Part shown: in pieces, positions 1,421 through 19,168 of the stretch | Layout: every line of letters starts with the position of its first letter | How positions within the stretch are numbered: position 1 is the first letter of the stretch | NCBI GenBank assembly: GCA_964534375.1 | Contig: CAZHPN010000041.1 | Span: forward strand, 13,421 to 36,832 | Source of the DNA: an uncultured bacterium | Lineage (GTDB): Bacteria > Lernaellota > Lernaellaia > Lernaellales > Lernaellaceae | Direction of reading: 5' to 3' | DNA length: 23,412 nucleotides | Position numbers and translations under genes: made by a program | The notes under the pieces: generated by a model | What the model was told of the DNA's origin: nothing | The model's input: the letters and a program-made list of their open reading frames with translations, nothing else | Database searches by the model: none

Positions 1421-3364
1421 TTGGGAAGTTTCGAAGGCCTTTGCCAGACGCGACGCGGCGCTCACCGGCGGCGGCGGCACGCGTTTTTTTCTGGGAAGCG
1501 TTGCTGCGGCCGTCGTGGCATCTTTGGCCAACACGTCTGGCGCCGGCCGCTCCTGGGACTCAGGCGGGGTTGCAGGCTGGGTCTCGTGGGCCACTATCGG
1601 CGGCGACGCTACGTCGGCGACCCCGTCCGGCGCTTCCGCGACCGGGATCGCCGTGCCAGGCTGTTCGCGGCTTTCAGCCTTCGCCGAACGGGGAGCAGGT
1701 GGTTTCGGCGGCGGTCCGATGCGGGCCATTCGCGACGATTTCTGCGCCTCGTCTTCGGCCAATTTTTTCGTCTTTTCGATGGCCGAAGTCAATTCGGCAA
1801 TTTGTCTTGCGTCTTCCAACAAGCGCGCCAATTTTTGGGTTTCCGCGTAGGCCTCCGTCGCCTGTTCGAACGCCTTTTGCTTCGTCAATGCCTCGGCGCG
1901 CCGGATTTTCACGGTCAGCAACGACTCAACGGATTTGATCCGGCTTTCGACCAATTGTAGGCCTTCGGCCGCCTCCGCATTGCCGGGGCTCGCGGCCAAC
2001 GCCTTGTTGAAGTATTGCCTGGCCGCCGAAAGACGGTCGTCACGGAAAGACTTCACCCCAGAGAGCAGGCAGTACGACGCGTCTTCGCCGTATTGGCGCA
2101 GGTAGCCGGTCAGGAGGGTCTCCGCCTCTACGCCGTGCTCGGCGTCGATCGCGGCGCGGATCCTGGACAGAGCGTCGGCTTTCTTGTCCGCCGGCGCGGT
2201 CTCTACAGGTGCGGCGCATGGGGACGGAATGGCGTCGACCGCCAGTCCCGTCGCTCGTTTCGGCGCGGCAAGCGCCGCATCCAGTGTTGCTTTCGCCGGC
2301 AACACGGCCTCGGGGTCGGGGAGAAACGGCAGGAAGTATTCGTCGGAAAGGCTGCCGAACAATAGCGGCTCCTGGCATAACTCTCTTTTGCGCGCTTCGC
2401 GTTGGACTGAAGTCCGCACATAGCTGAACAGGTCGTAGACCGAGACCCGGTCCGAATTGCGGCCCGTCGCTCCGCCGGTCAGGCCGTCGACCAGGTAGTA
2501 CGTGAAAAATCCGTGGCCCAAATTCTCATTTTCATAAGATTGCTGACTTACGCGGCAGGCGGAGAAAACGACGACGTTGTTGTCCGCGAGGCTGGCCATC
2601 GCCCGGTCCTGGTTGCCGACGGACAAACCCGTCGATTCGGACGCCGACGCCGCGTGACAGGAATCAAGGAAGAGCACCGCCCGTTTCGGGCTGATAGTTC
2701 GAATAACCTGCCGCAGGGCCTCGTAGCTAAACGCCGAATGGATAAACGACGCGCCGTCGGCGAAATCATGCGGCACGATGTAACCGCCGAAGGGCGAGTA
2801 GTGGCCGTGGCCGGCGAAATAGATGAGCAAGGAATCGCTGGCTGTCACGCGGCCGTACAAGGTCTCGAAGACGCGCGCGATGTTTTCCATCGTCGCCTGA
2901 TCGTCGAGGAGAATTTGCACATCCTGTTCGCGCAGCGCGTTGACCGTGGCTTTCGTCAGCAGTCGGTGAAACAGCCGCGCGTCGGCCGCCGCGCCGGGCA
3001 GGTGAGCGAAATTCGGATTCACATAATCGGAAATGCCGATGACGACCGCGTGGTTGCGGCTTTCCTCTTTCGAATCGACGTAATTGAACGCCACCTCGGC
3101 GCGAAGGTCGCGCTTGACGGCTTCAGCCATCACCGTCAACTTGTGCTCGCCCGGCGAATCGACCACGACGCGGCGGTAGATGTTCTTGTCGGTCGAGGCT
3201 TCGACGAAAATGCCGCGGGGACGGTCTTCGGTCATCACTTGGTCGTCGAGAAGGACAATGTAATTGTCGAACTCCTCCAGGACGCGAAACGCCACGGTGA
3301 AGACCTTGTTCTTGATATTTTGGCCCGGTTGGGGATAGAGAATCTTGATCCCGCTCTCGCTCAT
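1..3364 (-). CDS. Caspase-like (peptidase C14) domain protein with TPR-like region and long Pro/Ala-rich repeat tail; 3' end runs off the window
   Basis: Hand translation from ATG 3364 (GGAAAGG upstream): MSESGIKILYPQPGQ...AVVIGISDY...LPGAAADA...LLIYFAGHG (His codon 2809-2807)...VLFLDSCHA (Cys codon 2659-2657)...SACRVSQQSYE...GHGFFTYYLVDGL. Then TPR-like ARQYFNKALAASPGNAEA, then PEPPxxFAQPAP repeats. The same frame is confirmed at 139 and 58. It is missing from the ORF track, consistent with there being no stop in the window. Confidence 0.92.
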   Translation of the reverse strand, partial: MSESGIKILYPQPGQNIKNKVFTVAFRVLEEFDNYIVLLDDQVMTEDRPRGIFVEASTDKNIYRRVVVDSPGEHKLTVMAEAVKRDLRAEVAFNYVDSKEESRNHAVVIGISDYVNPNFAHLPGAAADARLFHRLLTKATVNALREQDVQILLDDQATMENIARVFETLYGRVTASDSLLIYFAGHGHYSPFGGYIVPHDFADGASFIHSAFSYEALRQVIRTISPKRAVLFLDSCHAASASESTGLSVGNQDRAMASLADNNVVVFSACRVSQQSYENENLGHGFFTYYLVDGLTGGATGRNSDRVSVYDLFSYVRTSVQREARKRELCQEPLLFGSLSDEYFLPFLPDPEAVLPAKATLDAALAAPKRATGLAVDAIPSPCAAPVETAPADKKADALSRIRAAIDAEHGVEAETLLTGYLRQYGEDASYCLLSGVKSFRDDRLSAARQYFNKALAASPGNAEAAEGLQLVESRIKSVESLLTVKIRRAEALTKQKAFEQATEAYAETQKLARLLEDARQIAELTSAIEKTKKLAEDEAQKSSRMARIGPPPKPPAPRSAKAESREQPGTAIPVAEAPDGVADVASPPIVAHETQPATPPESQERPAPDVLAKDATTAAATLPRKKRVPPPPVSAASRLAKAFETSQPAQVPPPSKPEPPPVFARSMPAPSAAKPVPPPVFAQLKPAPLPSKSVPPPVSAQSLPAPSAAKPEPPPVLAQPALTPPVAEPEPPPEFAQPTPAPAAAKPEPPPEFAEPAPPPPAAEPEPPIEFQQPAPAPAAVKLEPPLALPRPAPAPAAAKPEPPLVFALPIPTPPAGKPELPPVSAQSLPEPSAAKPEPPPMLAQPAPTPPVAEPEPSPEFAEPAPPPPAAEPEPPIEFQQPTPAPAAAKPEPPPEFAEPAPPPPAAEPEPPIEFQQPAPAPAAVKPEPPAEFAEPTPSFPAAEPEPPIEFQQPAPAPAAVKLEPPLALPRPAPAPAAAKPEPPLVFALPIPTPPAGKPELPPVYARPMPAPSAAKPEPPPVFAEPALPPPAAKPVRLPVFAQPVSVPTAAKPEPPPVFALPAPTPPAAKPEQPMALPQPAPAPAAAKPEPPLVFAQPALPPPAAAKPEPPLVFAQPALP

Positions 3365-4477: not shown

Positions 4478-5395
4478 ATGAACGACAGTGTGACACTTTC
4501 TACCTTCCAGTTTTTCGAGAAGTTTCCAAACCAGGAGACGGCTCGTGTTTACTTGGAAGAACAACTTTGGGTTGATGGCCCTTTATGTCCGACGTGTGGT
4601 GGCAAAAACGTCACGTCCCGCAAGGGCGGTTACTACCGCTGTAACCCGTGCAAATTCGATTTCACGGTAAGGACGGGAACGATCTTCGAGCGGTCGCACA
4701 TTCCATTGCACAAGTGGCTTTACGGCATGTACCTGTTGGTCACGTCCCGTAAGGGTGTTTCTTCACTGCAACTTTCCAAGGAAATCGGGATCACACAAAA
4801 ATCGACGTGGTTTATGCTTCACCGGCTACGCGAAGTTTGCGGCGACAATTCGATCAAACTGGCGGGTATCGTCGAAATCGACGAAACTTTTATCGGCGGC
4901 AAAGAACGAAATAAACACGCGAGCAAGAAGCTCAACGCGGGGCGCGGCACGGTCGGCAAAGTGGCGGTTCTGGGTATGCGGGAACGCGGTGGGCGCACGG
5001 TGGCGATGCCCGTTGTCGGAACCGACAAGGCGACGTTGCAAGCCGAAATTCGTGCAAACGTCGAGACGACCGCCACGATCCACACCGACCAGCACGGCGG
5101 ATACGATGGCTTGGGCGCGGATTTTAAGGCGCACGAAACCATCGACCATTCGGCTGGCGAGTACAAGCGTGGCAACGTGAGTACGAACGGAATCGAGAGC
5201 GTTTGGGCCGTGATGAAGCGTGGCGTCTATGGCGTGTACCACCACGTCAGCGACAAGCACCTTGGCCTCTACACAAACGAGTTCGCTTTTCGCCTGAACG
5301 ATGGTAATGTTGGTCGTCAGACAATGGACCGAATTGCCAGCATCGTCGAAGGATCGACAGGCCATCGTTTGACGTATAAGGCGTTGACGACATGA
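4478..5395 (+). CDS. IS1595-family (ISXO2-like) DDE transposase
   Basis: N-terminal Zn ribbon CPTC...CNPC; GTIFERSHIPLHKW; HTH region; EIDETFIGG, IHTD, TNGIESVW, YTNEFAFRLN motifs. Confidence 0.95.
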   Translation: MNDSVTLSTFQFFEKFPNQETARVYLEEQLWVDGPLCPTCGGKNVTSRKGGYYRCNPCKFDFTVRTGTIFERSHIPLHKWLYGMYLLVTSRKGVSSLQLSKEIGITQKSTWFMLHRLREVCGDNSIKLAGIVEIDETFIGGKERNKHASKKLNAGRGTVGKVAVLGMRERGGRTVAMPVVGTDKATLQAEIRANVETTATIHTDQHGGYDGLGADFKAHETIDHSAGEYKRGNVSTNGIESVWAVMKRGVYGVYHHVSDKHLGLYTNEFAFRLNDGNVGRQTMDRIASIVEGSTGHRLTYKALTT

Positions 5396-6561
5396 GCGAT
5401 TCTTTAGACAAGCTAGACGAGTTCGCCAAGCTGGTTCTCGCGTATCGACCAAAGAAGAAACGGGATAACATGCAAAACAAGTCACTGAATCGAAGTTTAC
5501 ACGCCGCGAAGGCGACGAAGCAGGATGAGTTCTACACGCAACTTTCCGACATTGATGATGAATTGAAGCATTACACGAAGTATTTCAAGGGCAAGACTGT
5601 TTTGTGTAACTGCGACGATCCAAAGGTCAGCAATTTCTTCCACTACTTCTCGCACAACTTCGAGAAGCTGCAACTGAAAAAGCTGATCGCCACCTGCTAC
5701 AAGAATTGCGACGCCGATCTGTTCAGCAAGCACACGGATGAAAGAGGAATCTACCTTGAGTATGAGGGTGACAAGAGCGGCAACCGCGTCCCCGACCCGG
5801 ACGAAATCGGCATTCACAAGCTAAAAGGCGACGGCGATTTTCGTAGCGAGGAATGCGTTAAGCTGCTCAAGCAAGCGGATGTCGTCGTCACCAATCCGCC
5901 GTTCTCGTTGTTTCGGGAGTACGTTGAGCAGTTGGTGAAGTACAAGAAGAAGTTCCTCATCATCGGGAATACAAATGCACTCACTTACAAGGATACATTC
6001 CGCCTCATAATGGAGGACAAACTTCGCACCGGCTACACAAACTTCAATGTCGGAATGTTTTTTGCCGTCCCAGACGACTGGGAGCAATTCCATCACGTTG
6101 ACAAAGACGGTAGGAAAATCGTGCGTGTGGCGACTTCGTGCTGGTTTACGAATTTAGACGTTGCGAAGCACAAGGAATCCTTGCCTCTCTACAAGGAATA
6201 TACTCCAGAAGAGTTTCCCAAGTACGACAACTACGACGCAATCGAGGTGTCCCGTTACAAGGACATTCCGGCTGACTACGACGGGCCGATGGGCGTCCCA
6301 ATTACGTTCCTCGATAAATACAACCCTAACCAATTTGAGATCGTGGGGGTTACGCAATCTTGGTTCGACGGAAGAATCAAGACGTATCCTCAACAAACAC
6401 AGGTTGGGGCTGATGGGCATAGAAGCAATGTGACAAAGCTGAATGATGGAGCGGCATTGAAGTCTGACTCAATTCCTCAGAACACGACTTATTATATAGT
6501 TAACGGGGAATACTACGTCAAAGTTTATGCGCGGATTCTCATCAGAAGGAAAACCCCATGA
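5392..6561 (+). CDS. Adenine-specific DNA methyltransferase, EcoRI family (alternative start ATG 5470)
   Basis: DEFYT, KTVLCNCDDP, GDGDFRSEEC, VVTNPPFSLFREY (motif IV NPPF), YDNYDAIEV and MGVPITFLDKY are characteristic of this family. ATGA overlap with the transposase. Confidence 0.9.
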   Translation: MSDSLDKLDEFAKLVLAYRPKKKRDNMQNKSLNRSLHAAKATKQDEFYTQLSDIDDELKHYTKYFKGKTVLCNCDDPKVSNFFHYFSHNFEKLQLKKLIATCYKNCDADLFSKHTDERGIYLEYEGDKSGNRVPDPDEIGIHKLKGDGDFRSEECVKLLKQADVVVTNPPFSLFREYVEQLVKYKKKFLIIGNTNALTYKDTFRLIMEDKLRTGYTNFNVGMFFAVPDDWEQFHHVDKDGRKIVRVATSCWFTNLDVAKHKESLPLYKEYTPEEFPKYDNYDAIEVSRYKDIPADYDGPMGVPITFLDKYNPNQFEIVGVTQSWFDGRIKTYPQQTQVGADGHRSNVTKLNDGAALKSDSIPQNTTYYIVNGEYYVKVYARILIRRKTP

Positions 6562-7640
6562 AGATCGAACTTAAGGAAATCGCGATACAAAAGCTAACAG
6601 ACGACTTCTCCGACAGCGCCGAAGCGGGAGTTGTCGCGTATGGTGGAAAACTCGACATTCGACCGCCGTATCAGAGGGAGTTCATCTACAAGGACAAGCA
6701 GCGAGACGCGGTGATTGATAGCGTTCGCAAAAACTTTCCGCTGAACGTGATGTATTGGGCGGTACGCAAAGACGGCAATTTCGAGGTGATCGACGGGCAA
6801 CAGCGCACGCTTTCAATTTGTCAGTACATCAACGGGGACTACGCTATCGACGGGTTGTATTTCCACAATCTGCAAGATGACCAGCAACAACAGATTCTTG
6901 GTTACAAATTGATGGTCTATTTCTGCTCAGGGACTGACAGTGAAAAGCTAGATTGGTTTAGAACCATCAACATCGCTGGAGAGGAACACACCGAGCAGGA
7001 ATTGCGGAACGCTGTCTATGCAGGACCGTGGACAGCCGATGCCAAGCGGTATTTCAGCAAGACAGGTTGCGCGGCCTATGGGCTGGCGAGCGATTATCTG
7101 CGGGGCAGCCCGATCCGGCAGGAATATCTGGAAACGGCAATCGCATGGCGCTCGGATGGCAAGATCGAAGATTACATGTCGAAGCATCAGCACGACAACA
7201 ACGCGACGCCGCTGTGGCAATACTTTCAAAAAGTGATCGGATGGGTGAAAGCTACGTTTCCAGAGTATCGACGAGAAATGAAGGGGGTGGGTTGGGGAGT
7301 TCTTTACAATCAGTTCAAGGACAAAGAGTTCGATACCGACAAACTGGAAAAACAGATTGCCAAGCTGATGATGGATGACGATGTAGAGCGGAAATCTGGA
7401 ATTTACCCGTATGTACTGGATGGCGACGAACGACACCTGAACATCCGCGTGTTTTCCGACAACATGAAGCGGGAAGCATACGAGAGGCAAAAGGGCGTCT
7501 GCTCCTGGTGCAAGAAGAAATTTCAGTTGAATGAAATGGAAGGCGACCACGTCAAGCCCTGGCACGAGGGCGGGAAAACCAGCGCGGCCAACTGCCAGAT
7601 GCTATGTAAAGACGATAACAGAAGGAAGTCTGGAAAATAG
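6558..7640 (+). CDS. DUF262 (GmrS/ParB-like) plus C-terminal HNH endonuclease; putative restriction partner
   Basis: YQREF and VIDGQQRT (DUF262); CSWC...DHVKPWHEGGKTSAANCQMLCKDDNRRK (HNH); ATGA overlap with the MTase. Confidence 0.9.
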   Translation: MKIELKEIAIQKLTDDFSDSAEAGVVAYGGKLDIRPPYQREFIYKDKQRDAVIDSVRKNFPLNVMYWAVRKDGNFEVIDGQQRTLSICQYINGDYAIDGLYFHNLQDDQQQQILGYKLMVYFCSGTDSEKLDWFRTINIAGEEHTEQELRNAVYAGPWTADAKRYFSKTGCAAYGLASDYLRGSPIRQEYLETAIAWRSDGKIEDYMSKHQHDNNATPLWQYFQKVIGWVKATFPEYRREMKGVGWGVLYNQFKDKEFDTDKLEKQIAKLMMDDDVERKSGIYPYVLDGDERHLNIRVFSDNMKREAYERQKGVCSWCKKKFQLNEMEGDHVKPWHEGGKTSAANCQMLCKDDNRRKSGK

Positions 7641-7665: not shown

Positions 7666-7690
7666 TTAGGTAGTCAAGTATATAATTCCC
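7666..7690 (-). repeat. Right terminal inverted repeat
   Basis: TTAGGTAGTCAAGTATATAATTCCC, followed by TSD AATTTTTG. Confidence 0.96.
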
Positions 7691-8628
7691 AATTTTTGCG
7701 GGTTCAGCGGCTCGGGGGACCACGCGATTCCGGTTTCTTGCGGCGGCGGCGCCTCGACCTTTCGCAGCCCTTGGTCGTAGCGAAGCAACAGACTCTTTGG
7801 GTTGGTATTTTCCGGAACCAAGAACAGCAAGGCGTTCATTATTTCGCGGCGATCGAAGCGCAGCACACGCCACGCGATCGGATCGTGATTGCGGAACAGG
7901 ATTTTTCTGGCGGACGGACGGGTGTCGGCCGGACCTGTGTCTGCCACGCCGAAGAAATACCAGCCGTAGCAAGGCGACTCGACGGCGCCGATTTCCGAGA
8001 CCATGGTGAAATCCCGCAGGCGAAACCGGAATTCATCGTCGCTGGTTTTTCCCGCGAACACCACCACGGCGAAGATTCTGCCCTTGGGCGGTTCAAGCTC
8101 GGAACTCACGACGGACGCGCCCTGTTTGAATCTGAATTGGACTTTTTTTGTCAAGAAGCCGCTCGGAGACGTCCCGATCGGCGTGTCGATCATTTCCACG
8201 CGCCGCGCCGGCTCAGGTTTGCCCGAATTCCTCGGATCGAGAATCGTTTGATACCTCTGGCTCTGCCAGTGATATTGCGGCGCGGCAGTCGGGTCCTTTT
8301 TGCGCTGTTGATAGACGAGTGCGTCTTGTTTCTCTCTCGCCAATTCCACCAGCGTCCTGATTTCGTTGTCGCCGTATTTTCCCCATGTGTGCACAAACAA
8401 TTCCCAGCGCAACAGAGCCCGTCCCAGGTCAGCCCCGCCGGCCGTTACATCGCAAACGTTGGCAAACTCTTGACGGGCCGCGGCTTGCGGGTCGCCGACG
8501 TCCTCCGCAGCCGCAGCCAGACCGATGACGGCCGCCAAGAACCCCGCGAGCAGAACCGCGACTCGCCCACCCGCTTGGCAATGTTTGATCACCATGTGCA
8601 TGAGGTCCTCCAGCTCAATCCGGTTCAT
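7691..8628 (-). pseudogene. Exported protein, 5' part, interrupted by the IS (read-through stops inside the TIR at 7666); paralog of the adjacent lipoprotein
   Basis: Signal-like VAVLLAGFLAAVIGLAAAAE. The ORF runs into the TIR as ...PQK-LGIIYLTT*. The true C-terminus is at 4175-4288. Confidence 0.8.
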
Positions 8629-9859
8629 ACGCCTGACTCGTCGAATGGCCTTCCCCGAACTGATAATGAAACTGCTTGATATCCTGTTCCGATGGGGCGG
8701 GGGCGCGGGTCAGCCATGTTGCCTGCACGCAGTTCTCGCCGTAGTGCAACGACGCTTTGTCATCCCCCAGGGCGTCGCGATCCGTCACCGAAAACAACAG
8801 AGCGATCTTCAGGCCGATCCCGCTGGGAGTCGTCACCATCATGTGGACCCGTTCGCCGTACCGGAAGACCATCGTTTGCAGCGCCTGGTCGGCCGAGCCT
8901 GTGGCCGCGGTGTAAAATGTCCATCCTTTGAGGCGGTACTCGTGGTCATTCATTACCAGCGCGTACTGCGAAAGATAGGCGTCGAGGTGTTCGTAGGTGT
9001 TGAACCCATCGAGCACGACAATCACGAATTGGCGTCCGTTCTGTGCCGGAACCATACCATCTTGTTGTCTGCCTGAACGAAACGTGACGCTGCGCCCAGC
9101 GGCGAAAGCGTTTGCCCGGTCGCCAAAGGGTGTGCGATTGACGGCCGGACAACGGAGAACAGGGCCACCCGGCGCAGCGGACGCAGCCGTCGCAGCCGGC
9201 AGGAAATAATAATTCAAGGTGCTGCAGTCGACCTCGGCGCAACTACTGCAAAGTCTTTGGCATTCGTTGACTCTGGACTTGTCCAACATCTGGCGCTGTC
9301 CGAGATATTGGAGCACGTCGAAATATCGCGGGCAGCCAACTTTTGCGGTCATGGCGGCCTTCGGCCTCGTCATGCAGTCGCGGAACTTGTTGGCCACGGT
9401 CCCGGCCTCGGCCGTATCCCCCTGTTTTTTCGCCTCGCCGAATCTGTCGAACAGTTCGGCAGCTTCACTTTCCTCCGGGGTGCGATTTAATTTCGCCAAT
9501 TGATTCAGTTTTCTTTGTTGGAACTCCACGGTAAAAAAATTCGTTTTCTCGAGCATGATCTTGGTTTGCCCCACGCCGCCGCGAGTCCACATGTAATCAT
9601 CCCACCTGCGGGCGGCTGTTGCACATGTCTTGCAGAAATCTCTGTTCGGGTCCCCGTCCCCTTGTCGGCAGCGGTTTTGGCAGTCGAACACATGCTGTTC
9701 CATAACATCGGGATTGAATCCGACGTTAGCGCCTGAATTACTCCAAGGCATATCGTCGCGCAGATGGCGCAGGTCATCATCGATCCATTCGCTTAGCGCG
9801 TACTCGCAACCGGTCATCGCGACAATGGCCGCCAAGAAAACAAGCGAGCTTCTTCTCAT
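8615..9859 (-). CDS. Cys-rich lipoprotein of unknown function
   Basis: MRRSSLVFLAAIVAMTGC lipobox; AAGGAG RBS; many Cys residues; overlaps the next gene. Confidence 0.8.
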   Translation of the reverse strand: MRRSSLVFLAAIVAMTGCEYALSEWIDDDLRHLRDDMPWSNSGANVGFNPDVMEQHVFDCQNRCRQGDGDPNRDFCKTCATAARRWDDYMWTRGGVGQTKIMLEKTNFFTVEFQQRKLNQLAKLNRTPEESEAAELFDRFGEAKKQGDTAEAGTVANKFRDCMTRPKAAMTAKVGCPRYFDVLQYLGQRQMLDKSRVNECQRLCSSCAEVDCSTLNYYFLPAATAASAAPGGPVLRCPAVNRTPFGDRANAFAAGRSVTFRSGRQQDGMVPAQNGRQFVIVVLDGFNTYEHLDAYLSQYALVMNDHEYRLKGWTFYTAATGSADQALQTMVFRYGERVHMMVTTPSGIGLKIALLFSVTDRDALGDDKASLHYGENCVQATWLTRAPAPSEQDIKQFHYQFGEGHSTSQAYEPD

Positions 9860-9893: not shown

Positions 9894-11798
9894 TCAGGCG
9901 ATTTCCGTTTCGACCGCCTCGTCGTTGCGTAAACCTAGAGCGCTTACGGTCGTCCCGAGGTCGACGGCCATTCCCCGAACCCGAAATGCCGCGACTTTGC
10001 CGGAAAACGGCAAGGGATAACCGGCCGCTTCGTAATCCGCGCGCACCATGTCGAAAACTTGCCCCAATGGGCTCGTGAAATAGATTTCGTGAATGTACAA
10101 GTCCGTGACGGCGCCGTCGGGCCCCCGCACGCGGAAGCAGGGCGGCGCCGGTTCGTCTGCTTGGACGGCAGCGGCGCCCTGCTTTGCCAGTCCGTCCTCG
10201 CGGTTCGCAGACGCTGGAACAGTCGCGGTCGGCGGCTGCAATGGAGACCCGCCGGCCCCTGCCGCGGGGCCGGCAGGGTCAACAGTGGACGCCGACCACG
10301 CCTCCGGGGGCGCCGCCGTCTCTTTGTACTCGTCGCGGGACCCGCTGTCGCGCCGGCCTTCCGGCATTGGAAAGGCCGCGGCGGGCGCGGCGGCTTTGGG
10401 CCTATACCCCTGGGTTTTCCCGGTAAAGCCGCCGCCGGCCTGGGGCCGGAAACCGGCGGCCGGGTTCCCCTGGATTTCGCGTTCGGGCGCCAACGACTCC
10501 CGGCCAAAAAGAAACGGCACAAAAAACAGGCCGCCAAGCGCCGCTAGAGCTATCAGGTAAATGATCATGACCTCGCGGGCGCGTTTGCCCTTTGAGCGCG
10601 ATTCGGCTGATCTAACGGGGGATGTTGGTTTGCCCGTTAGCGCCTGGTTCTTGATCGATTCGCAGATGGCGCGGAACGAGTCCTTAGGGACTTGGATGTT
10701 GCCCGCCACGTCCGAGAAATTCCTGGTGAGTTCGGGAGCGGTCAAGTTCGCGGCGGAGACCTTGTACTTGATGTCGCCGATCAATGCGTTGCGCGCGTGC
10801 CGACTCCGAAAATAAACGTGGAACTCCGCGGCGAAGGTCGCGGTGAAACCTCGCCACAGGTTCGACAGTTCATCGGCGGTGCGGATGCTGTAGTATTCGC
10901 CCGTATTAGATTTCAGGGAGCGAACGACTTCCTCGTCCAGACCGTCTTCGCCGCGGATATCGGGATCGCCGAAACCGACGGTATGCACTTGGAGTCCCGA
11001 TTTTTCGACCAGCCGAAGAATCTCGTCTTTTTTCATCTTGTACTTGGGGTCCAAATGGCCGGAGCCGGAATCGCCGGAGTCTTTTCCGTCAGTTAGCACG
11101 ATCATCGTCCGCCTTCCCGACTGCTTCGCCATCACCTCCAAACCGACGCTCACGGCCTTGTATAGGCACGTGTTGTATAATGGGCGGAGCTTTTCGACCT
11201 CCGACTTCAACGGCGCCGGGTCCGCGGAGAATTTGACTGAATCTGGCTCGCCGACCACCGAGTGGAATGGGAGAATGCCGATCTGGTCCTGCGGGCCTTT
11301 TCGGTCGATGAACTGGAGGAGCACTTTCTTCAATGCTTCGATCTTGCTGGTGCGTTCACCCTTGCTGGCCGGATATTTCATGCTCCCGGAAACATCCACC
11401 ACCAGCAGCACCGTCAAGGGGCCACGGGATGAAATATCCGCCGTAGGCGTCGGCGCGACGCCGTTTTCGCCGGCCTGAACGGCGGGCGTCGGTGAAGCTA
11501 AATCAGCCTCCGTCTGCCGAACAACCTTTCGTTCCGTCGGGGGGATCGGGCGTCCATCTTCCTGAACCATGATCGAATCAACGACGTTCTGCTCGACCTG
11601 GACCGGTTTGCCGTGTTCATCGACGAGATTAAGGTCGATGACAATGCACGGTCGGTCTTCGTAATCGCTGAGTTCAACCTGGTTGATCTTAATCTCTTTC
11701 GGCGCAGCGCCGGCGTCGACGGCGCTGAGCGCCCAAGCCGCCGCCAAAAAGCAGCAAGCCAAGAACAACCGTGGTTTGCTTTCTTTCATACGTCTCAT
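9894..11798 (-). CDS. Signal peptide, VWA domain, TM helix, Pro/Ala linker and C-terminal ubiquitin-like domain
   Basis: MIDAS DVSGS, NTCLY, IVLTDG, VHTVGFG; TM VMIIYLIALAALGGLFFVPFLF; the C-terminal about 80 aa align with the Ubl of the E2 fusion. Confidence 0.88.
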   Translation of the reverse strand: MRRMKESKPRLFLACCFLAAAWALSAVDAGAAPKEIKINQVELSDYEDRPCIVIDLNLVDEHGKPVQVEQNVVDSIMVQEDGRPIPPTERKVVRQTEADLASPTPAVQAGENGVAPTPTADISSRGPLTVLLVVDVSGSMKYPASKGERTSKIEALKKVLLQFIDRKGPQDQIGILPFHSVVGEPDSVKFSADPAPLKSEVEKLRPLYNTCLYKAVSVGLEVMAKQSGRRTMIVLTDGKDSGDSGSGHLDPKYKMKKDEILRLVEKSGLQVHTVGFGDPDIRGEDGLDEEVVRSLKSNTGEYYSIRTADELSNLWRGFTATFAAEFHVYFRSRHARNALIGDIKYKVSAANLTAPELTRNFSDVAGNIQVPKDSFRAICESIKNQALTGKPTSPVRSAESRSKGKRAREVMIIYLIALAALGGLFFVPFLFGRESLAPEREIQGNPAAGFRPQAGGGFTGKTQGYRPKAAAPAAAFPMPEGRRDSGSRDEYKETAAPPEAWSASTVDPAGPAAGAGGSPLQPPTATVPASANREDGLAKQGAAAVQADEPAPPCFRVRGPDGAVTDLYIHEIYFTSPLGQVFDMVRADYEAAGYPLPFSGKVAAFRVRGMAVDLGTTVSALGLRNDEAVETEIA

Positions 11799-12745
11799 TC
11801 CTTCGAGGCCCCGCGCCGCAGGCGGAAATGAAAACGAGTTTTCCCCAATTGCACGGTGTCGCCATGTTTCAGTGCGATCGGGGCGGTCACCTGTTGATTA
11901 TTCACATAGGTCGCCGCGCCCTGGTTTTGCGCTTCGGGCATCTTCACCCACAACGGCGTCAGCAGGTAACGATTGGTGTCCTCGGACCACTCCAAGATCG
12001 CGTGCACGGCGTCGATGTCCGGATCATTGGCGCGAATCTGCAAATTCGCCTTCGGGCTCGAGCGGCCGGGGTCGCCATTGCCGAAGACGTTCAACGCATC
12101 GCGGAAGACCGGGCTGTGAAAACGGCCGTCGTATTTGGCGATGTTGCTGTCGTCGCCAACCAACTCGACATGTGCCGATAACGAGACGATGGCGTGAATG
12201 GCCAGCGCCAGCAAGCCGCCCATGAGTGTAACCGACGACACGCGCACCCAGTCGATGCTCACGGGCAAAAACCGTGCAACCCAGAACAGCAGTCCCGCAA
12301 TCACGCCGCCGACCATGCCGCCAATCAGCCCCCAAACGGCCCGCGAAACCGACATTGGATGCAGAGCCTGGCCCACGCCGATCACCAACCCGATCAAAAC
12401 AAACGCGACCACCCGCGCCAGTATGTCGTTGGACGCAACCAAATTCTGGTACGCGAGAATGCCGAGCCAGCCGCCCGCGACGCCCCCGCCGACGCCGGTG
12501 GCGGCCCCGATCACGGCGTCGCGCCACGCGTTCGCAAGGCCCGACATCCAGACGTTTTCTGCGGCGCAGATCGTCGCCCCGACGAAAAGGCCCACGGCGC
12601 CGAATAGCGGAAGCGAATCCCACGGCTTCGCCAGCGCCATCGGCGACAACAGCGAGAACAGCTCCGAGACAAACCAGCCCGACGCGCCCGCGATCATACC
12701 GGCGACGGAAAACAAATAAAGCACCGCCCATGGAAACACGAGCAT
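11795..12745 (-). CDS. Multi-pass membrane protein with C-terminal FHA-like domain
   Basis: About 6 Gly-rich TM helices, then DPDIDAVHAILEW...TYVNNQQV...LKHGDTVQLGKTRFHF (FHA C-terminal signature); ATGA overlap with the VWA gene. Confidence 0.85.
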   Translation of the reverse strand: MLVFPWAVLYLFSVAGMIAGASGWFVSELFSLLSPMALAKPWDSLPLFGAVGLFVGATICAAENVWMSGLANAWRDAVIGAATGVGGGVAGGWLGILAYQNLVASNDILARVVAFVLIGLVIGVGQALHPMSVSRAVWGLIGGMVGGVIAGLLFWVARFLPVSIDWVRVSSVTLMGGLLALAIHAIVSLSAHVELVGDDSNIAKYDGRFHSPVFRDALNVFGNGDPGRSSPKANLQIRANDPDIDAVHAILEWSEDTNRYLLTPLWVKMPEAQNQGAATYVNNQQVTAPIALKHGDTVQLGKTRFHFRLRRGASKE

Positions 12746-12750
12746 ACTCC

Positions 12751-14724
12751 TTAGAAGTCCTGGCCTTTCCCCGTGCTTGTCGCGCGCGCCGAACGCCCAC
12801 GCGTTGCCCTAGACCTGATCCGGTCGGCCGCGGGTCTGTCTGGCGACGACGCCGACCAACGGGCCGAGTATTGATATTTGCCGCCGTTGAGATCCACGGT
12901 CAGTTCGACAGCGCTGGGTTCGGCTGCCGTCCACCCGACCCCACCGGGGCACAATGAATAATCTGGATTTATTTCACCGCCGTTAAGCGCATTGGTCACC
13001 GTGGCGGGATCTAACGTCAGCGGGCACGATTTGCCGCCGTTCCATTCCAGCATCAACGACCCGCTTTCAACGGTCAGCCCCCCAGCCCTGACGGCGTCCA
13101 ACTCATCTGAGGACGGCATCTCAGATAGGAAAACCGCGCGGTGGAAATAAGTCAACTTGCCAAGGGTCGATTTCGGTTTGCCGTTGAGATTGTCTTCCCA
13201 GAATCTTCCACGATTGGGCGCTTCGCCTTTGGTCAACAACTCCAACTCGAATAAAGCAGTCCCCGAGCCGCCGGCCTTAATCGTGAATTGACGGATGCCG
13301 CGGCGAAAGCCGTCAAAATCCAAAGCGGCTATTTCCCCCCCGCCGTTGGAACCCGCAGCCGTCGAAACGCGGGAGATGGTCGCCTTCACGAAATCTTGCC
13401 TCGTCATTTCTTTCGGAACATCCCATTTGAGCTCGTACGTATCAGCCGACACCGTGCGCCCGTGGAGGTTGAGCGCTGGCGGTTCCGTGTGCAGAGCCGG
13501 CCAGATGAACTGATCCAGGAGGATCAAAATCAGGAGGAACAACACCAGGCCCGCCGGAACCATGATTCGCCAATGGGTCAGTTTGGCCCACCATTTCACT
13601 TCGACCGTTGGCGAACCGGAAAAAACCATGGGCGCCGGCCCGATCGAAAACGCGGGGCCGACCGCCGAGGCGGCGGCTTCGTTTGGCGCGCCGCGCAAAT
13701 AACCGATCGGCCGATTCGGGTCAAGCAGAAAAAAAACCTTTTGCGGCTTCTTATAATTGGGATGACCTTCGACTTCTTCGCGCGGAAAGAACGTCGCCGT
13801 TTTTCGTCTCGGTTGGACGACCATCGCCACGCAAAATGGCTCTTCGAAATTCCGGTGAAACATCGATTGGTCGTAACCGGAAAGAAACAAATCGTGGTCC
13901 GGGTGGCTGTGGTACCAGCCCACTACCTCGTACGACTTGTGCTGCGATTGGTTGAATTGTTGCAGTTGGTGCAAAATGTTGCGAACGGCGTACCCCGGAA
14001 AAGTAAACTCGGTCGCGCTGGCGTTTTCTGAATCAACAGGCGCCGCCATCTCGATGGTCACGGTGAAACGACCGGACTCGGCGTCCAGGCCATGGACGCC
14101 GAACAACACCCCGCCCACCTCCCGGGCCTGCGCCGCCTGCAAGCCGGAATCGCAGTGGTCGTGGATTTGGCGCAGAACGTCGCGGCTGACGTGCACGAGC
14201 ACGTGAGTCGTTTTTGGATCCCAAGTGAAGAAATCGTTTCCCACGGCCGTCGCGGGCTTGGCCGCCGGCCGGTTCTGCGGCGTCGGCGGCCGGGCCGGCA
14301 ATGGCGGAACTGGATGCCTAGATTCAGGGGCGGTAATTGACGAAACCGGCTCGACAGCCAAACCGGGCTGGAAAGTGTGTTCGACGACGTTCGACGTTTC
14401 GACAATCGCGTCGTGTGCTGATCGGTCGCGAGGCGGCGCATAAGCGTCGCGCGAGTCTTCGGCGTCGCTCGGGTCGGCCGGCGGCGCCGCCAACGGCGGC
14501 GGCTGTTCCCCGGCGACAGACGGCGGCGCTTCCAGAGCGCTCTCCGAAAACGGCGTCGCTGGCGCAGGAGACGCCTCAGCGCGCCCGGCCGCGACGAACG
14601 GCGCGGCCTCAACCACGCCCAATTCCGCGGACCGCTCGGCGGCGGTCGTATTCCCGTCCCGCGGACGTTTCGGCGCCGTGGCGCCGCGTTTCTCCCGGGA
14701 GTCGAGTGGTTCCGATTTCGCCAT
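12751..14724 (-). CDS. JAB/MPN+ (JAMM) metalloprotease with TM helix and C-terminal, probably extracytoplasmic domain
   Basis: EVGGVLFG...VVGWYHSHPDHDLFLSGYD matches E...HxHx7Sx2D; disordered N-terminus; TM IMVPAGLVLFLLILILL. Confidence 0.92.
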   Translation of the reverse strand: MAKSEPLDSREKRGATAPKRPRDGNTTAAERSAELGVVEAAPFVAAGRAEASPAPATPFSESALEAPPSVAGEQPPPLAAPPADPSDAEDSRDAYAPPRDRSAHDAIVETSNVVEHTFQPGLAVEPVSSITAPESRHPVPPLPARPPTPQNRPAAKPATAVGNDFFTWDPKTTHVLVHVSRDVLRQIHDHCDSGLQAAQAREVGGVLFGVHGLDAESGRFTVTIEMAAPVDSENASATEFTFPGYAVRNILHQLQQFNQSQHKSYEVVGWYHSHPDHDLFLSGYDQSMFHRNFEEPFCVAMVVQPRRKTATFFPREEVEGHPNYKKPQKVFFLLDPNRPIGYLRGAPNEAAASAVGPAFSIGPAPMVFSGSPTVEVKWWAKLTHWRIMVPAGLVLFLLILILLDQFIWPALHTEPPALNLHGRTVSADTYELKWDVPKEMTRQDFVKATISRVSTAAGSNGGGEIAALDFDGFRRGIRQFTIKAGGSGTALFELELLTKGEAPNRGRFWEDNLNGKPKSTLGKLTYFHRAVFLSEMPSSDELDAVRAGGLTVESGSLMLEWNGGKSCPLTLDPATVTNALNGGEINPDYSLCPGGVGWTAAEPSAVELTVDLNGGKYQYSARWSASSPDRPAADRIRSRATRGRSARATSTGKGQDF

Positions 14725-14734
14725 TTTGTTTCAC

Positions 14735-15658
14735 CTAACCCGGCATGCGGCCGGGCGCGCGCCGAGTCGGCATCGGCCCGATCGGTTTCTTGACCACAAA
14801 TTCGGTTCGCCACTGTTGTTTATTGGCTTCCAACGGGTTTCGCAGTTTGACCCTGTCGGTCGGGAAAAAATCCGGGTGTTCTTTGGAATATTTGATAAAC
14901 CAGGCCTTGGCCGCTTCGTTCATCCGGGCGTCGACCTCGTCGAGGTTCACCAGCTTGGGCTCGAACTGGATCACGTGACTGATCTGGACAGCGACGTAGC
15001 AAAGATCCGCGTCCAATTCGTTCCAATTGGTGGCATAGCAAATGTTGCCCTTTTCGAAGTTGACGTTGGGATGAAACAAAGAAAAGTCCGGCGCCAGATC
15101 GGCGATCGGTTTCTCAATCGGGTATTTCGCCCCGAGAGTCAGTTGCACGACATGGCGATCGTTCATCACCGGGTGTCCGTGCTGGTCTATTTTCTTGACC
15201 CCCTTTATTCCTTCGTAGATCAGTTCGAGTTTGAAACTGTCGATGGGTTTGACATGCAGCCAGTTCGCGTTTTCGGCCTGCTGGGCCATGCGCTTCAAGA
15301 TTTCGATGTCGGCGACGCGGCGAACCGTGTTGTCATAAACAACGGGGTGAGCGGCCGGGGCCGGCCCGGGCGGCCCCGCGGCCACCTGGGAATCGATGAA
15401 AACCTCGACAGCGCCGCCGTCAGCTATGCCCGCGGAAGCAAGGGTGTCTTCCGGATTTACCAGTTCGCCCTGGAAGTAAAAAAAGATCTCTTCGTCGGGT
15501 TTTATTCGAATGGGCGGTGTCGCCGAATCCGTGCTGTGTTTGTAGAACTCGATGGCGTAATCCATGAGGTCCTTGAGCGCGGTGTTGAAGTCGTAAATCT
15601 CCACCGGATAGGCGGTGGTGCCGCGCATGGTTTGAACTTGCAGAACGAAATTCGGCAT
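14735..15658 (-). CDS. Ubiquitin-like domain fused to E2/UBC conjugating domain
   Basis: ATG 15658 after AAGGAG. N-terminal beta-grasp-like ...FYFQGELVNPEDTLASAGIADGGAVEVF...VAAG. UBC motif YPIEKP...FHPNV...GNICY (Cys codon 15040-15038)...NW. Confidence 0.9.
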   Translation of the reverse strand: MPNFVLQVQTMRGTTAYPVEIYDFNTALKDLMDYAIEFYKHSTDSATPPIRIKPDEEIFFYFQGELVNPEDTLASAGIADGGAVEVFIDSQVAAGPPGPAPAAHPVVYDNTVRRVADIEILKRMAQQAENANWLHVKPIDSFKLELIYEGIKGVKKIDQHGHPVMNDRHVVQLTLGAKYPIEKPIADLAPDFSLFHPNVNFEKGNICYATNWNELDADLCYVAVQISHVIQFEPKLVNLDEVDARMNEAAKAWFIKYSKEHPDFFPTDRVKLRNPLEANKQQWRTEFVVKKPIGPMPTRRAPGRMPG

Positions 15659-15660
15659 TC

Positions 15661-16317
15661 TTAACTCCTTCTCGCCGTCGTGTCCCAACCGTCGGACAGA
15701 ATCGCAACGTTGCAACTAGGGCAGAGGAAATTCTTGGCTTTCCACGATGATTCGCTCAGAAAGAATGGTTCGTCCGGATGGCCGTCCTCGTTGGGGCAAG
15801 CGTATACGGCAAACCTTCTGCCGCCTGGCCCGGAATTCGCGCCGGTAATCGGGTCCATCCAATTCGGGATGTACCGCGGGGCGCCGAATTGAGACGGCAT
15901 CTTCGTTTGCGGGAGAAGAATCCGGCCGTCGTCGGTGTACGTCTTGCCGCCGGCCTGCGCCGGCGCGGCTTGCGGATCCGGATAAGCATACGCAAAAACG
16001 CTGGCGACTCCTGCGGCCAGCCCAAACCCGCCAAAAACCCCAGCCAGAAGCCCAGGGTCGTCTTGAAAGGAGTACGCCACGTAGATCAAGCCAGGCACGA
16101 CAACCACGACGGCCGCGCCCAGGCGCGTTTTGCTAAGGAAACCTCGCCAAACAAACAGCGCGCAAGCTACGCAAGAAACGACACCGAAAGCTCCGGCGAC
16201 GAACACCGCGATGACGTCCGGGGGCACGAGATTTCGGCCGCCCAAGATCAGGAGCACGGGAAACGGCATCAGGGCAAAGGCTATGGGCGCGATGTGTCGG
16301 CTCATGTTGTATTTCAT
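15661..16317 (-). CDS. About 4-TM membrane protein with C-terminal one-zinc RING/SP-RING-like motif (candidate E3)
   Basis: ATG 16317 preceded by GAGG-containing purine tracts; four hydrophobic helices; C-terminal DPITG...CPNEDGH...W...CPSC. The CDS is certain; the E3 role is inference. Confidence 0.7.
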   Translation of the reverse strand: MKYNMSRHIAPIAFALMPFPVLLILGGRNLVPPDVIAVFVAGAFGVVSCVACALFVWRGFLSKTRLGAAVVVVVPGLIYVAYSFQDDPGLLAGVFGGFGLAAGVASVFAYAYPDPQAAPAQAGGKTYTDDGRILLPQTKMPSQFGAPRYIPNWMDPITGANSGPGGRRFAVYACPNEDGHPDEPFFLSESSWKAKNFLCPSCNVAILSDGWDTTARRS

Positions 16318-16333
16318 CCCCTCGACCGACCTC

Positions 16334-17533
16334 TCACGAAAACGAAAGCAAGCGGTCAATGTCGCCGGTCAATTCGGCGTATTGAAACGCAAGCGGATTC
16401 TCCGCGTCGCTCACTTTGAAAATGTCTCCCGGGCGAAATCCCGCATCCGCGAGCGTTTTTTCGACGCACAGCGAGCGACGGTTGATCAGCGCGCTGAATT
16501 CCGTGCCAGCCAGACGCAGCCCACATTTCGGACAAGACGCTCTCTTGCAATCCTTCCTGGCGAACACGAGCAACGGCAGACCAATGGCATAGTCCTCACC
16601 GCAGTTCTCACAGCGGGCCGTATGCAACAAATCGTAGAACAACTCGATTTGCGGATTCGCGAACGAATCAGCTAAAATGTCCAACAAGCCGCCGACGGTC
16701 GTACGATCTGCGGACACGTCAACCAACTCGACGACTTCAGTGATCGGGTACTCGGGGTGAACACTACAGTTCGGATTTCTCTTGATGGGGCGGGCGACAA
16801 ATCGTGGACTCCCGGTTTCGATAAATTGAATCACTCCCGGTTGCGGCGGCAAGCGGTCGTTTTTCACGAGATAGCGCAGCCCTTCTGTCATTTGAAGGCC
16901 GGCGATGATTGAGGCCATCATCGGTGTGGATGGGATGAACCCGGCCTCGGCGGCGCCGTGCTCGGAGATCGCACACGACCAGCGATTCAGTTGGGCGTTG
17001 AGATCGTAGTATTCCGCCCGCGCTTTTTTGGATTTGTTGCACTCGTAGCAAGGGCCGTCGGCTGAAGGTTGATAACTGGCAATCTGTCCGTTCAGTTCGA
17101 TGTTGGCGTTCATTCCGCCGTCCACCCATGGAGTACCGATGTGCTGAAGAACATGATTGAGATGGAAGCGCGGCAAATAACCATCGAAACAGCAGAAGAC
17201 CAAATCGCAACGGCGAAACGCCCCCATTCCCAACGTCATGATGTCGGCGGCGTAAGTGGCGACTCTCGTTTCCGAGTTTAGTTGCCGAAGTTTTTGCGCC
17301 GCGACCTCCACCTTGAGTTTGCCCACGTCGTCGCTTCGAAACAGCACTGAACGCGTCAGATTGGACGCCTCAACGGTGTCCCTGTCGACAAGAAACGCGC
17401 GGCCGATCCCGATCAGACCGAGCAATTTTACGATCTCATTCCCGATTGCGCCCACGCCCGCAACCATCACGGTCGCGTCGCGGATTTTCTGGCGGTCCCA
17501 CCAATGAATGGCGTCTAAACGAGAGTAATCCAT
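16334..17533 (-). CDS. ThiF/E1-like Ubl-activating enzyme with C-terminal Zn-ribbon/ubiquitin-fold extension
   Basis: DYSRL; GVGAIG nucleotide motif; DRDTVEASNLTRS; Zn site CYEC...CSVH; candidate catalytic WSC (Cys187); extra CENC...CPKC and KTLADAGFRPGDIFKV. Confidence 0.93.
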   Translation of the reverse strand: MDYSRLDAIHWWDRQKIRDATVMVAGVGAIGNEIVKLLGLIGIGRAFLVDRDTVEASNLTRSVLFRSDDVGKLKVEVAAQKLRQLNSETRVATYAADIMTLGMGAFRRCDLVFCCFDGYLPRFHLNHVLQHIGTPWVDGGMNANIELNGQIASYQPSADGPCYECNKSKKARAEYYDLNAQLNRWSCAISEHGAAEAGFIPSTPMMASIIAGLQMTEGLRYLVKNDRLPPQPGVIQFIETGSPRFVARPIKRNPNCSVHPEYPITEVVELVDVSADRTTVGGLLDILADSFANPQIELFYDLLHTARCENCGEDYAIGLPLLVFARKDCKRASCPKCGLRLAGTEFSALINRRSLCVEKTLADAGFRPGDIFKVSDAENPLAFQYAELTGDIDRLLSFS

Positions 17534-18173: not shown

Positions 18174-18415
18174 GGCTTGACCTTCTGGTTTTTTGAGGCG
18201 GGCTTTACTTTTTCTTCAAGCGTTTTCATCGCATTTTCGATCGTTCTCACTGTTCCCACTCCCACGAAAAGAACAGCGGCAGTCAAAAGTAAAATGGCCC
18301 CGATAACCTGCTCGTTCTGAGCCCCGTCCCCTAAGAGAAGACGTTTAACTCCCTCCACGGTGGCAAGACTAGATAAGAACATAAACCAAAACACAAAAGA
18401 GCGAAGTTTCGTCAT
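18170..18415 (-). CDS. Small hypothetical 2-TM protein
   Basis: 81 aa; GGAGG RBS; ATGA overlaps at both ends; two hydrophobic stretches. Confidence 0.6.
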   Translation of the reverse strand: MTKLRSFVFWFMFLSSLATVEGVKRLLLGDGAQNEQVIGAILLLTAAVLFVGVGTVRTIENAMKTLEEKVKPASKNQKVKP

Positions 18416-18565
18416 GGTTTGACCTCCTGCTTGATTACTTCGAGGGCCAGGGCGTGATAATCCTCCGCTCCGGCGGCCGTGGGCTCGTAAATGGTTACCG
18501 GAAGCCCGAAGGACGGCGCTTCCGCAAGACGGACGTTTTCCCGGATGACGGTCCGGAAGCAGAGG
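18412..18565 (-). pseudogene. parA: ParA/Soj family ATPase, C-terminal fragment only
   Basis: FRTVIRENVRLAEAPSFGLPVTIYEPTAAGAEDYHALALEV is the canonical Soj/ParA C-terminus; there is no Walker A region. Confidence 0.85.
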
Positions 18566-18899
18566 CTCGCCTTGTCGATCAGCTTGCCGATGTCCGGCTG
18601 CTTGGCCTGGCTTGCAGGAAGGGCCAGCGGGCCTCCTTTTGCACCCAGAAGACGTTCTCGGCGCGGTATTCGTCGGGGTCTTCGGCGTCGGCGTGCGGCT
18701 CGGTCTTCAACGCCTCGTGGCGCTCCTGGAAGGCGTCGGAGATGTACTTGAGGAAGATCAGCCCCGGCACGACGTGCTTGTACTCGGCGGCGTCCATATT
18801 GTTCCGCATCTTGTCGGCCGCCGCCCACAGCGTGGCCTTGAAGCCGAGACTGGCCCCGCCGTTCTTCTTGCCGCCGTTGGTCTTCTTCGCCCGAGCCAT
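18566..18899 (-). pseudogene. hsdM: Type I R-M methyltransferase subunit, N-terminal fragment, frameshifted and truncated
   Basis: LWAAADKMRNNMDAAEYKHVVPGLIFLKYISDAF...EDPDEYRAENVFWV..EARW, then a frameshift to AKQPDIGKLIDKA, then an abrupt switch to parA sequence. Confidence 0.88.
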
Positions 18900-19168
18900 G
18901 AGGTTCACGCCCCTATACGCGACGGTTCATCGCGTACTTTCGCCGATTTTTGTGACAGCCGGGGTAACATACCCGATGAAAAATCACGGTTGCAATGCCC
19001 TCTTCATGAAACGATTAGGCCGGGAAGGCAAGGCGGGTGCGGGCTCGTGCTGGCGCAAATCAACACCTTCTCGACAGCGGGACGAACGCCGGCCCGCGCC
19101 CTGAAAGACGGAAGGCGGCCTCCCAGCACGTCAGGAGGGCGGTCGCCGGCCCCGACGATGCAGGCGCC

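Follow-up and report, generated by a model that had tools for sequence, protein, structure and literature searches.

Within a 23,412-nt stretch of contig CAZHPN010000041.1 (assembly GCA_964534375.1) from an uncultured Lernaellota bacterium, hereafter the window, a single open reading frame (ORF; 14735-15658, minus strand) encodes a ubiquitin-like (Ubl) domain and a ubiquitin-conjugating enzyme (E2) in one chain of 307 aa. The fusion gene belongs to an operon that also encodes a ubiquitin-activating-type enzyme (E1) and a JAB/JAMM peptidase. The reading considered moderately probable here is that the adjacent JAB protein liberates a Ubl whose last residue is Ala93 (or Ala94) and which would then be conjugated by the E1, through Cys187, and by the E2, through Cys207. 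The gene product would thus be a pro-protein carrying both the tag and its carrier enzyme, and a JAB-cut pro-protein subsequently charged through E1 and E2 is the simplest model, since no other Ubl with a tail is available.

The start of the fusion protein is placed at ATG 15658, 2 nt past the stop of the upstream gene. An alternative start at TTG 15715, which would give 326 aa, was rejected because Met1-Pro2 at 15658 is invariant across homologues. In an AlphaFold2 (AF2) model built from an alignment of 25 related sequences, residues 1-91 have a predicted local distance difference test score (pLDDT) >90 and show the b-b-a-b-b-b order of a beta-grasp (strands 3-10, 13-20, 57-62, 65-67, and 83-89; helix 28-38). 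The Ubl body proper, residues 1-89, is encoded at 15392-15658 (minus strand). It is followed by a disordered joint (residues 92-105, pLDDT <50), a confident alpha/beta domain (residues 106-293), and a disordered tail (residues 294-307, pLDDT <50; 14738-14779, minus strand) that ends in a nonconserved Gly. Exhaustive structural comparison with VIA-align matched residues 1-90 to the ubiquitin-like protein 7mrj_B (Z 11.2, root-mean-square deviation 1.7, 74 residues) and, at Z 9-10, to ubiquitin, SUMO, ISG15, and Rad60 SLD2, with scores for ubiquitin-like chains over the Ubl domain of 11.2, 10.2, and 9.5. In addition, when residues 1-95 were scanned alone, Pfam Rad60-SLD scored 25.5 bits against a cut-off of 23.8.

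The E2 part (residues 106-293; 14780-15343, minus strand) has the canonical UBC architecture. VIA-align paired residues 106-267 with UBE2S (Z 11.7, root-mean-square deviation 2.6, 126 residues aligned), and among the Foldseek matches listed the top rows were nearly all eukaryotic E2 chains, with a best E value of 6e-6. The HPN motif occupies residues 196-198 (15065-15073), and the predicted catalytic Cys is residue 207 (15038-15040). Over the 25 rows of the family alignment described below, the His is retained in 24 (Gln in the other), and the Pro, the Asn, and Cys207 in all 25. Pfam UQ_con gave no match on the window protein at E <=0.1 and is on record for the relatives P0004, P0005, and P0064; neither PADLOC nor NCBIfam holds a model that covers the Ubl-E2 protein. 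The AF2 model, the structural matches, the Rad60-SLD score, and the conserved HPN and Cys207 together confirm the view, taken in a preliminary description of this DNA, that an N-terminal Ubl is fused to an intact UBC-type E2. As a separate observation, Ile293-Gly294-Pro295 and Pro302-Gly303 in the E2 tail (14750-14782, minus strand) are invariant in four close homologues, away from the chain end; these residues may form a short docking motif.

The fusion gene is present in two of 17 genomes of the phylum, the window's own included; the other, G013, is 84% complete. A word-based homologue search returned three close homologues, 51-58% identical overall, one of them essentially the G013 protein. 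Searching with a 25-row profile returned only six proteins, and an exhaustive profile-free search gave 100 matches, mostly stand-alone bacterial E2s of ~170-220 aa. The family alignment comprises 25 rows: 21 of these matches (239-326 aa), the three close homologues, and the window protein, with rows chosen by length and by a match or HPN position implying an N-terminal extension of at least ~90 aa. Proteins of other lengths or architectures (P0031, P0100, P0061, P0090, P0104, P0106, and P0013) were left out, as were all short E2s. One of the 25 rows, P0065, carries a Cys-rich N-terminus in place of the Ubl. A contig scan with a four-row alignment found one locus, and the plasmid collection gave no match. 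A metagenome scan found only L002, L003, and L004, which are 26% identical to residues 138-261 and were all dropped; in L002, the E2 stands alone, is 155 aa long, has a UBE2S-like motif, and lies among eukaryotic-looking genes.

Conservation in this family points to V92-A93-A94 (15377-15385, minus strand) as the proposed site of both JAB cleavage and E1 activation. All three residues are invariant in the four close sequences, and the rest of the linker shows no such conservation. Across the 25 rows, the V92 column holds Val in 13, Ala in eight, Leu in three, and Ser in one; the A93 column holds Gly in 17 and Ala in eight (16 and eight of 24 when P0065 is set aside); and the A94 column holds Ala in 13, Ser in four, Gly in four, Thr in three, and Val in one. 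The stretch from the last strand to the motif is free of insertions and deletions in 22 of the 25 rows. As aligned, the family motif is therefore read as [V/A/L]-[G/A]-[small]; its spacing from the last strand is constant, and Ala93 of the window protein stands in the Gly column. To judge from a maximum-likelihood tree of the 24 fusions (midpoint-rooted for drawing only), this Ala is neither a one-off nor a degenerate oddity, since it is kept in eight of the 24 rows and these need only two state changes, a number as low as which was reached in none of 500 shuffles. Seven of the Ala rows fall in three deep lineages beside Gly clades, and the eighth is the long-branched P0018.

The preliminary description had instead let the Ubl end in VAAG, with Gly95 (15376-15374) followed by PPGPAP. 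The letters are as described; Gly95 is nonetheless the wrong choice of end, since conservation falls on V92-A93-A94 and position 95 lies in a clade-specific Pro-rich linker (residues 95-105, G95-PPGPAPAAHP; 15344-15376, minus strand; pLDDT <50). Residues 95-100 are gapped in 20 of the 25 family rows and residue 101 in 21. A cut after Gly95, with Ubl(1-95) and its C-terminal Gly as the activated form, would supply the canonical Ubl end and agrees with the VAAG-P sequence of three of the four close homologues. Nevertheless, the fourth, P0003, has Ile at this position, P0007 runs from V-A-A directly into the E2 domain with neither linker nor Gly, and the Gly95 column over 25 rows consists of 20 gaps, four Gly, and one Ile. 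A Gly-Pro bond is also a poor substrate for most deubiquitinases, as the preliminary description pointed out, a concern that falls away for the V92-A93-A94 site because the proposed cut is A93|A94 or A94|G95. A Gly95 end is consequently regarded as improbable.

The opposite end of the chain fares worse. The protein does finish in GRMPG, as had been stated, and the final Gly sits in a disordered tail, which would be compatible with activation of the full-length protein through its own Gly307. However, the four close sequences end in Gly (the window protein), Ala, Gln, and Arg, one of the last three after a 60-residue extension, so the terminal Gly is peculiar to the window protein; only three of the 25 family rows keep a final Gly. 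Activation through Gly307, the second of three models offered in the preliminary description, is thereby left with a negligible probability. The homologue alignment that had been proposed as the check found neither Gly95 nor the terminal Gly conserved. For this reason, the Gly-centered framing is refuted and the polyprotein idea survives: the first of the three models, release of the Ubl by JAB from a polyprotein, is the best supported, given the BubAB/BubCD precedent and the prediction of Kaur and co-workers discussed below, although not with the Gly95 end originally assigned to it.

The A93|A94 bond is favored, with A94|G95 second. The A93 column is the only one restricted to Gly and Ala; the adjoining A94 column includes Thr and Val. 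Ala93 is favored as the activated end because its column alone is limited to residues known to be activated by E1s. The spacing is also suggestive, with four residues from the end of the last strand (D89, by DSSP) to A93, the same distance as from R72 to G76 of ubiquitin. The VIA-align match at rank 45, in which SUMO1 residues 21-97 span model residues 1-93, is weak, since it concerns range ends only and the tail is poorly modeled. Processing of UFM1 at V-G|S-C resembles the family motif. By analogy, an Ala end is chemically plausible, because a construct of the E. cloacae CD-NTase with a sequence ending in Ala was seen as an AMP conjugate in Cap2 (10.1101/2022.03.31.486616).

No free Ubl gene was found at any level searched. 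There is no suitable small ORF upstream of the E1 gene, and the remaining 13 kb of the contig, outside the window, holds seven ORFs, none of which carries a Ubl family. Across the 6.3-Mb, 94%-complete genome, no second copy of the Ubl domain was found: PF00240 matched only at the Ubl-E2 locus itself, PF14454 gave nothing, PF08817 gave one match on another contig (E 0.3), and neither of the genome's two ThiS/MoaD genes is on this contig. The earlier statement that the window lacks a free Ubl gene therefore holds, and extends to the rest of the contig and genome. That account of the window's Ubl content was incomplete in one respect, in that it missed a second beta-grasp at the C-terminus of the operon's von Willebrand factor A (vWA) protein (9897-10139, minus strand).

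This second domain is formed by the C-terminal 81 residues of the vWA protein, which its transmembrane (TM) helix places in the cytoplasm; the order is b-b-a-b-b-h-b. An AF2 model from two sequences reached pLDDT 87.5 and a predicted TM-score (pTM) of 0.75, and the top Foldseek rows were mostly SUMO2/3 (E ~1e-3, probability 1.00). In a profile comparison, hhalign aligned it to the Ubl-E2 family as far as the column of residue 87 (probability 84%, E 7e-6); BLASTP between the two beta-grasps gave no significant match (E 1.7), and a homologue search with the vWA C-terminal domain returned only the query itself. The chain stops one residue beyond the last strand, at the column of D89, and thus lacks the four-residue tail.

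The vWA beta-grasp is formally a candidate for the conjugated C-terminus, in that its end could be conjugated without processing and the whole membrane protein thereby attached, as Cap2 does with CD-NTase. The SUMO-like fold is homologous to the fused Ubl, and both orthologues stop at the same position with a small residue (Ala in the window, Gly in G013). Against this, a chain ending one residue past the last strand has no four-residue tail to reach the E1 active site, and with two sequences only, the small last residue may be chance. A complex prediction for E1 with the vWA beta-grasp gave scores of 0.00 and 0.00 against a mark of 0.32, was run without controls, and is uninformative either way. 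Conjugation of the vWA end is accordingly held to be very improbable, and the domain is read not as a tag but as a module for docking or for accepting one.

The same domain is relevant to a further alternative, namely that the fused Ubl is never released and acts as a binding module, in cis or in trans, for the E1, the JAB protein, or the membrane partners, the tag being encoded elsewhere or lost. Tail-less Ubl-like docking domains do exist, one of them on the vWA protein of this very operon, and the structural matches of the fused Ubl include a complex of Rad60 SLD2 with Ubc9 (VIA-align rank 43). A docking-only role, however, leaves unexplained why [V/A/L]-[G/A]-[small] occurs in the disordered linker in 25 of 25 rows, and it leaves the E1 and E2 of this genome without a tailed substrate. 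It is viewed as possible, if unlikely.

Release and conjugation of the Ubl, the preferred reading, requires an active peptidase and an active E1, and both genes are near at hand. The JAB gene (12751-14724, minus strand) is the next gene after Ubl-E2 in both operon-bearing genomes. Its 657-aa product scores 42.3 bits with Pfam JAB and 33.9 bits with Prok-JAB, has a complete motif (E202, H272-x-H274-x7-S282-x2-D285), and consists of a Pro/Ala-rich N-terminus, the JAB domain, one TM helix (385-403), and a C-terminal domain of ~250 aa. This last domain (12751-13570, minus strand), presumably periplasmic, has no family match and is 29% identical in G013. The E1 (16334-17533, minus strand) is a 399-aa protein with a single ThiF-type adenylation domain (Pfam ThiF, 143 bits). 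Among PDB sequences it is closest to the UBA7 and UBA1 active adenylation domains (E 1e-21), with MccB and ThiF next. It has a zinc site made of C162-x2-C165, C256, and H259 and a C-terminal domain with a zinc ribbon (C308/C311/C334/C337), and Cys187 lies in the crossover loop; Cys187 and the zinc Cys/His residues are invariant in the G013 orthologue. Judged by sequence, the parts of a thioester cascade (E1 Cys187, the JAMM motif, and E2 Cys207) are all intact.

In the proposed mechanism, the JAMM peptidase would cut the disordered joint at V92-A93-A94, most likely after Ala93 and possibly after Ala94, yielding a Ubl of ~93 residues with a C-terminal alanine and a separate canonical UBC E2. 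The single-domain E1 would adenylate the Ubl end and take it as a thioester on the crossover-loop Cys187, from which the Ubl would pass to Cys207 of the E2 and then onto a target lysine. The target would probably be at the membrane, among the partner proteins with TM and zinc, TM and FHA, or vWA domains.

Several points weigh against this proposal. Cleavage, adenylation, and conjugation are deduced from sequences and a structural model, and a beta-grasp Ubl that ends in Ala, rather than Gly, would be unusual. The tail was aligned with MAFFT over a short, low-complexity stretch, so that a one-residue error of register is possible. There are only three independent close homologues, the operon context was checked in one other genome (G013), and the 25 rows were hand-chosen from 105 matches by length and match position, with P0065 turning out to be no Ubl fusion. 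Finally, the JAB protein is membrane-anchored and may have other, or more important, substrates than the Ubl-E2 junction.

The operon consists of seven tightly packed minus-strand genes, with spacing from a 4-nt overlap to 34 nt, in the order E1, four-TM zinc-knuckle protein, Ubl-E2, JAB, FHA membrane protein, vWA protein, and lipoprotein, followed by a paralogue of the last. A promoter and terminator scan gave two promoter-like sites where 2.8 would be expected, and the minus strand had no usable one. The four-TM protein (15661-16317, minus strand) was delineated by hydropathy scan and orthologue alignment; it probably starts at ATG 16317 (the longest ORF starts at 16359) and has a C-terminal single zinc knuckle, C-x5-H-x18-C-x2-C. 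It matched no Pfam, PADLOC, or NCBIfam family, and nothing above 0.82 in the ESM Atlas. RING families gave no Pfam match with the whole protein (E <=0.1) or with its last 80 residues (E <=1), and only four metal ligands are conserved. The FHA protein (11795-12745, minus strand) is a polytopic membrane protein with five hydrophobic segments and a C-terminal FHA domain (Pfam FHA, 38.9 bits), and has a 55% identical orthologue in G013. The vWA protein (9894-11798, minus strand; Pfam VWA_2, 43.8 bits) has a signal peptide, the vWA domain, one TM helix (412-430), and a Pro/Ala-rich stretch ahead of the beta-grasp. Two paralogous envelope proteins, at 8615-9859 (with a lipobox) and 7666-8628 (with an N-terminal hydrophobic segment), both on the minus strand, match a single G013 lipoprotein; no families were found for them in NCBIfam, PADLOC, or Pfam scans.

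In G013, the operon is split over two contigs and comprises E1, the TM-zinc protein, Ubl-E2, JAB, the TM-FHA protein, vWA, and lipoprotein genes, followed directly by a gene for a caspase-domain protein. In the window, a caspase-domain protein and possible effector (2-3364, minus strand; Peptidase_C14, 80 bits) is separated from the lipoprotein genes by a plus-strand cassette (4478-7640) encoding an IS1595 transposase, an EcoRI-type adenine methylase, and a GmrSD/HNH nuclease. The cassette has a G+C content of 0.50-0.52 versus 0.57-0.61 for the operon. Given that the G013 caspase gene directly adjoins the lipoprotein gene, the cassette appears to have been inserted later, parting the operon from its caspase gene. 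Upstream of the operon, overlapping ORF remnants at 18412-18908 (minus strand) include an HsdM N-terminal fragment (64.5 bits) and an ORF with a ParA-type ATPase-like C-terminus, which suggests a decayed mobile or defense region. Past the caspase gene and outside the window, locus L018 (G000:C41, 7037-13193, minus strand) encodes a FadL/TodX-like outer-membrane protein (below cut-off), a DUF4384 protein, and two helical apolipoprotein-like repeat proteins; these genes may be part of the same envelope-linked system.

Taken further, the operon could be imagined as a transmembrane Ubl signaling device. The periplasmic vWA domain, the JAB C-terminal domain, and the two lipoproteins would sense an envelope event and gate the JAMM cut at Ala-Ala, the SUMO-like domain of the vWA protein would hold the E2 or the E1 at the membrane, and local conjugation of the freed, alanine-ended Ubl would fire the caspase-type effector. 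This extension is doubtful. If true, it would describe the first bacterial system of the canonical-UBC kind to combine an Ala-ended beta-grasp tag with outside-in control, proteolysis being the on-switch. More generally, the all-membrane partners hint at a control over processing that is exerted outside the cytoplasm.

To our knowledge, bacterial Ubl conjugation has been shown biochemically only for the cyclic-oligonucleotide-based antiphage signaling system (CBASS), Bil, and Bub, all of which have diverged E2s. The canonical HPN-Cys UBC branch, closest to eukaryotic E2s, is predicted from genomes, and no bacterial test of it was found in the literature searched. The locus described here offers a compact, testable case, with one pro-protein, one JAB, one E1, a predicted cut at V-A|A, and an alanine-ended tag. 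It also bears on annotation: such operons are not incomplete for want of a Ubl gene, and the last visible Gly is not necessarily the activated residue. New here are the predicted V-A|A cut and the alanine end that it would give the tag, together with the Ubl domain without a tail at the end of the vWA protein and the membrane-bound architecture. UBC-type prokaryotic systems with a Ubl+E2 fusion, JAB, E1, and RING were reportedly described by Burroughs, Iyer, and Aravind in 2011.

Among the known systems, Type I Bub (6E.1) is alike in having an N-terminal Ubl-E2 fusion, a JAB/JAMM peptidase in the operon, and a single-domain E1 of the homodimer type that activates the freed Ubl, as set out in the 2024 preprint by Ye, Gong, Chambers, and Corbett (PMC11601596). 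In that work, Edman sequencing placed cleavage of the BubAB Ubl-E2 fusion by the JAB domain of BubCD right after a conserved Gly. However, BubB is described there as a diverged, Cys-free UBC fold without the C-terminal helices that uses Ser, with His/Asp, and forms oxyesters, whereas the window E2 has HPN, Cys207, and the C-terminal helices. Likewise, in Bub one chain holds both JAB and E1, and the E1 has no crossover Cys, while here the JAB is a separate membrane protein, two genes from an E1 bearing Cys187. The E1 matched BubCD at E 6e-7 only, versus 1e-21 for UBA7, and Pfam scans of operon, flanking, and contig ORFs gave no match to the serine protease DUF6527/BubE. Because of the Cys E2, the Cys-bearing E1, the separate JAB, and the lack of DUF6527, the locus is not assigned to Bub.

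Bil systems share a JAMM cut after a conserved Gly and before a small residue, BilC cleaving E. aridi BilA at G97|A98, in the manner of the family's V-G-A (10.1101/2023.09.26.559546). They differ in having BilA as a free gene, a CEHH-type BilB E2, and a BilD with inactive and active adenylation domains, in place of the single 399-aa ThiF E1 found here; the PADLOC Bil models gave only a weak BilD match to the E1 (26 bits). The locus is not assigned to Bil. Type II CBASS (10.1101/2022.03.31.486616) resembles the proposed system in that a bacterial E1 adenylates a C-terminus whose last residue can be Ala and a JAB protein trims or removes it, but its substrate is a CD-NTase with a disordered tail rather than a beta-grasp, and its E2 and E1 are fused.

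In layout, the locus resembles the UBC-type systems, in which a UBC E2 stands behind a YukD or ubiquitin-like domain and is accompanied by a separate E1 and JAB, vWA, and a caspase-type effector (PMC7159879). In that work, Kaur et al. (2020) described a Ubl+E2 protein beside JAB, E1, and a prokaryotic RING and predicted release of the Ubl by JAB. In the window and in G013, the E1 and JAB genes are likewise in the same operon as the fusion. The ESM Atlas holds bacterial clusters of 58, 98, and 57 proteins with YukD and UQ_con, and P0106 (EAD1-YukD-E2, Actinomadura) is a detectable relative (E 1e-15). The operon Pfam scans gave no recognizable binuclear RING, MoxR, FtsH, AAA+, and EAD1 had no Pfam match in operon or flanking ORFs, and the Ubl starts at residue 1 without an extension; with MoxR, FtsH, and EAD1 lacking from these scans, the locus is not an FtsH-ternary vWA-MoxR system, a type marked by MoxR, double FtsH AAA+ components, and EAD1 on both Ubl and effector. 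It also departs from the UBC-type systems in that its partners are all membrane proteins and in having Ala where most relatives have Gly. Thus, the polyprotein idea is already known, having been demonstrated for the sister family Bub and predicted for UBC-type systems; what is particular to this locus is the Ala in the Gly position, the lack of a free Ubl, the one-zinc knuckle protein, and a set of partners that are all membrane proteins, including a membrane-anchored JAB.

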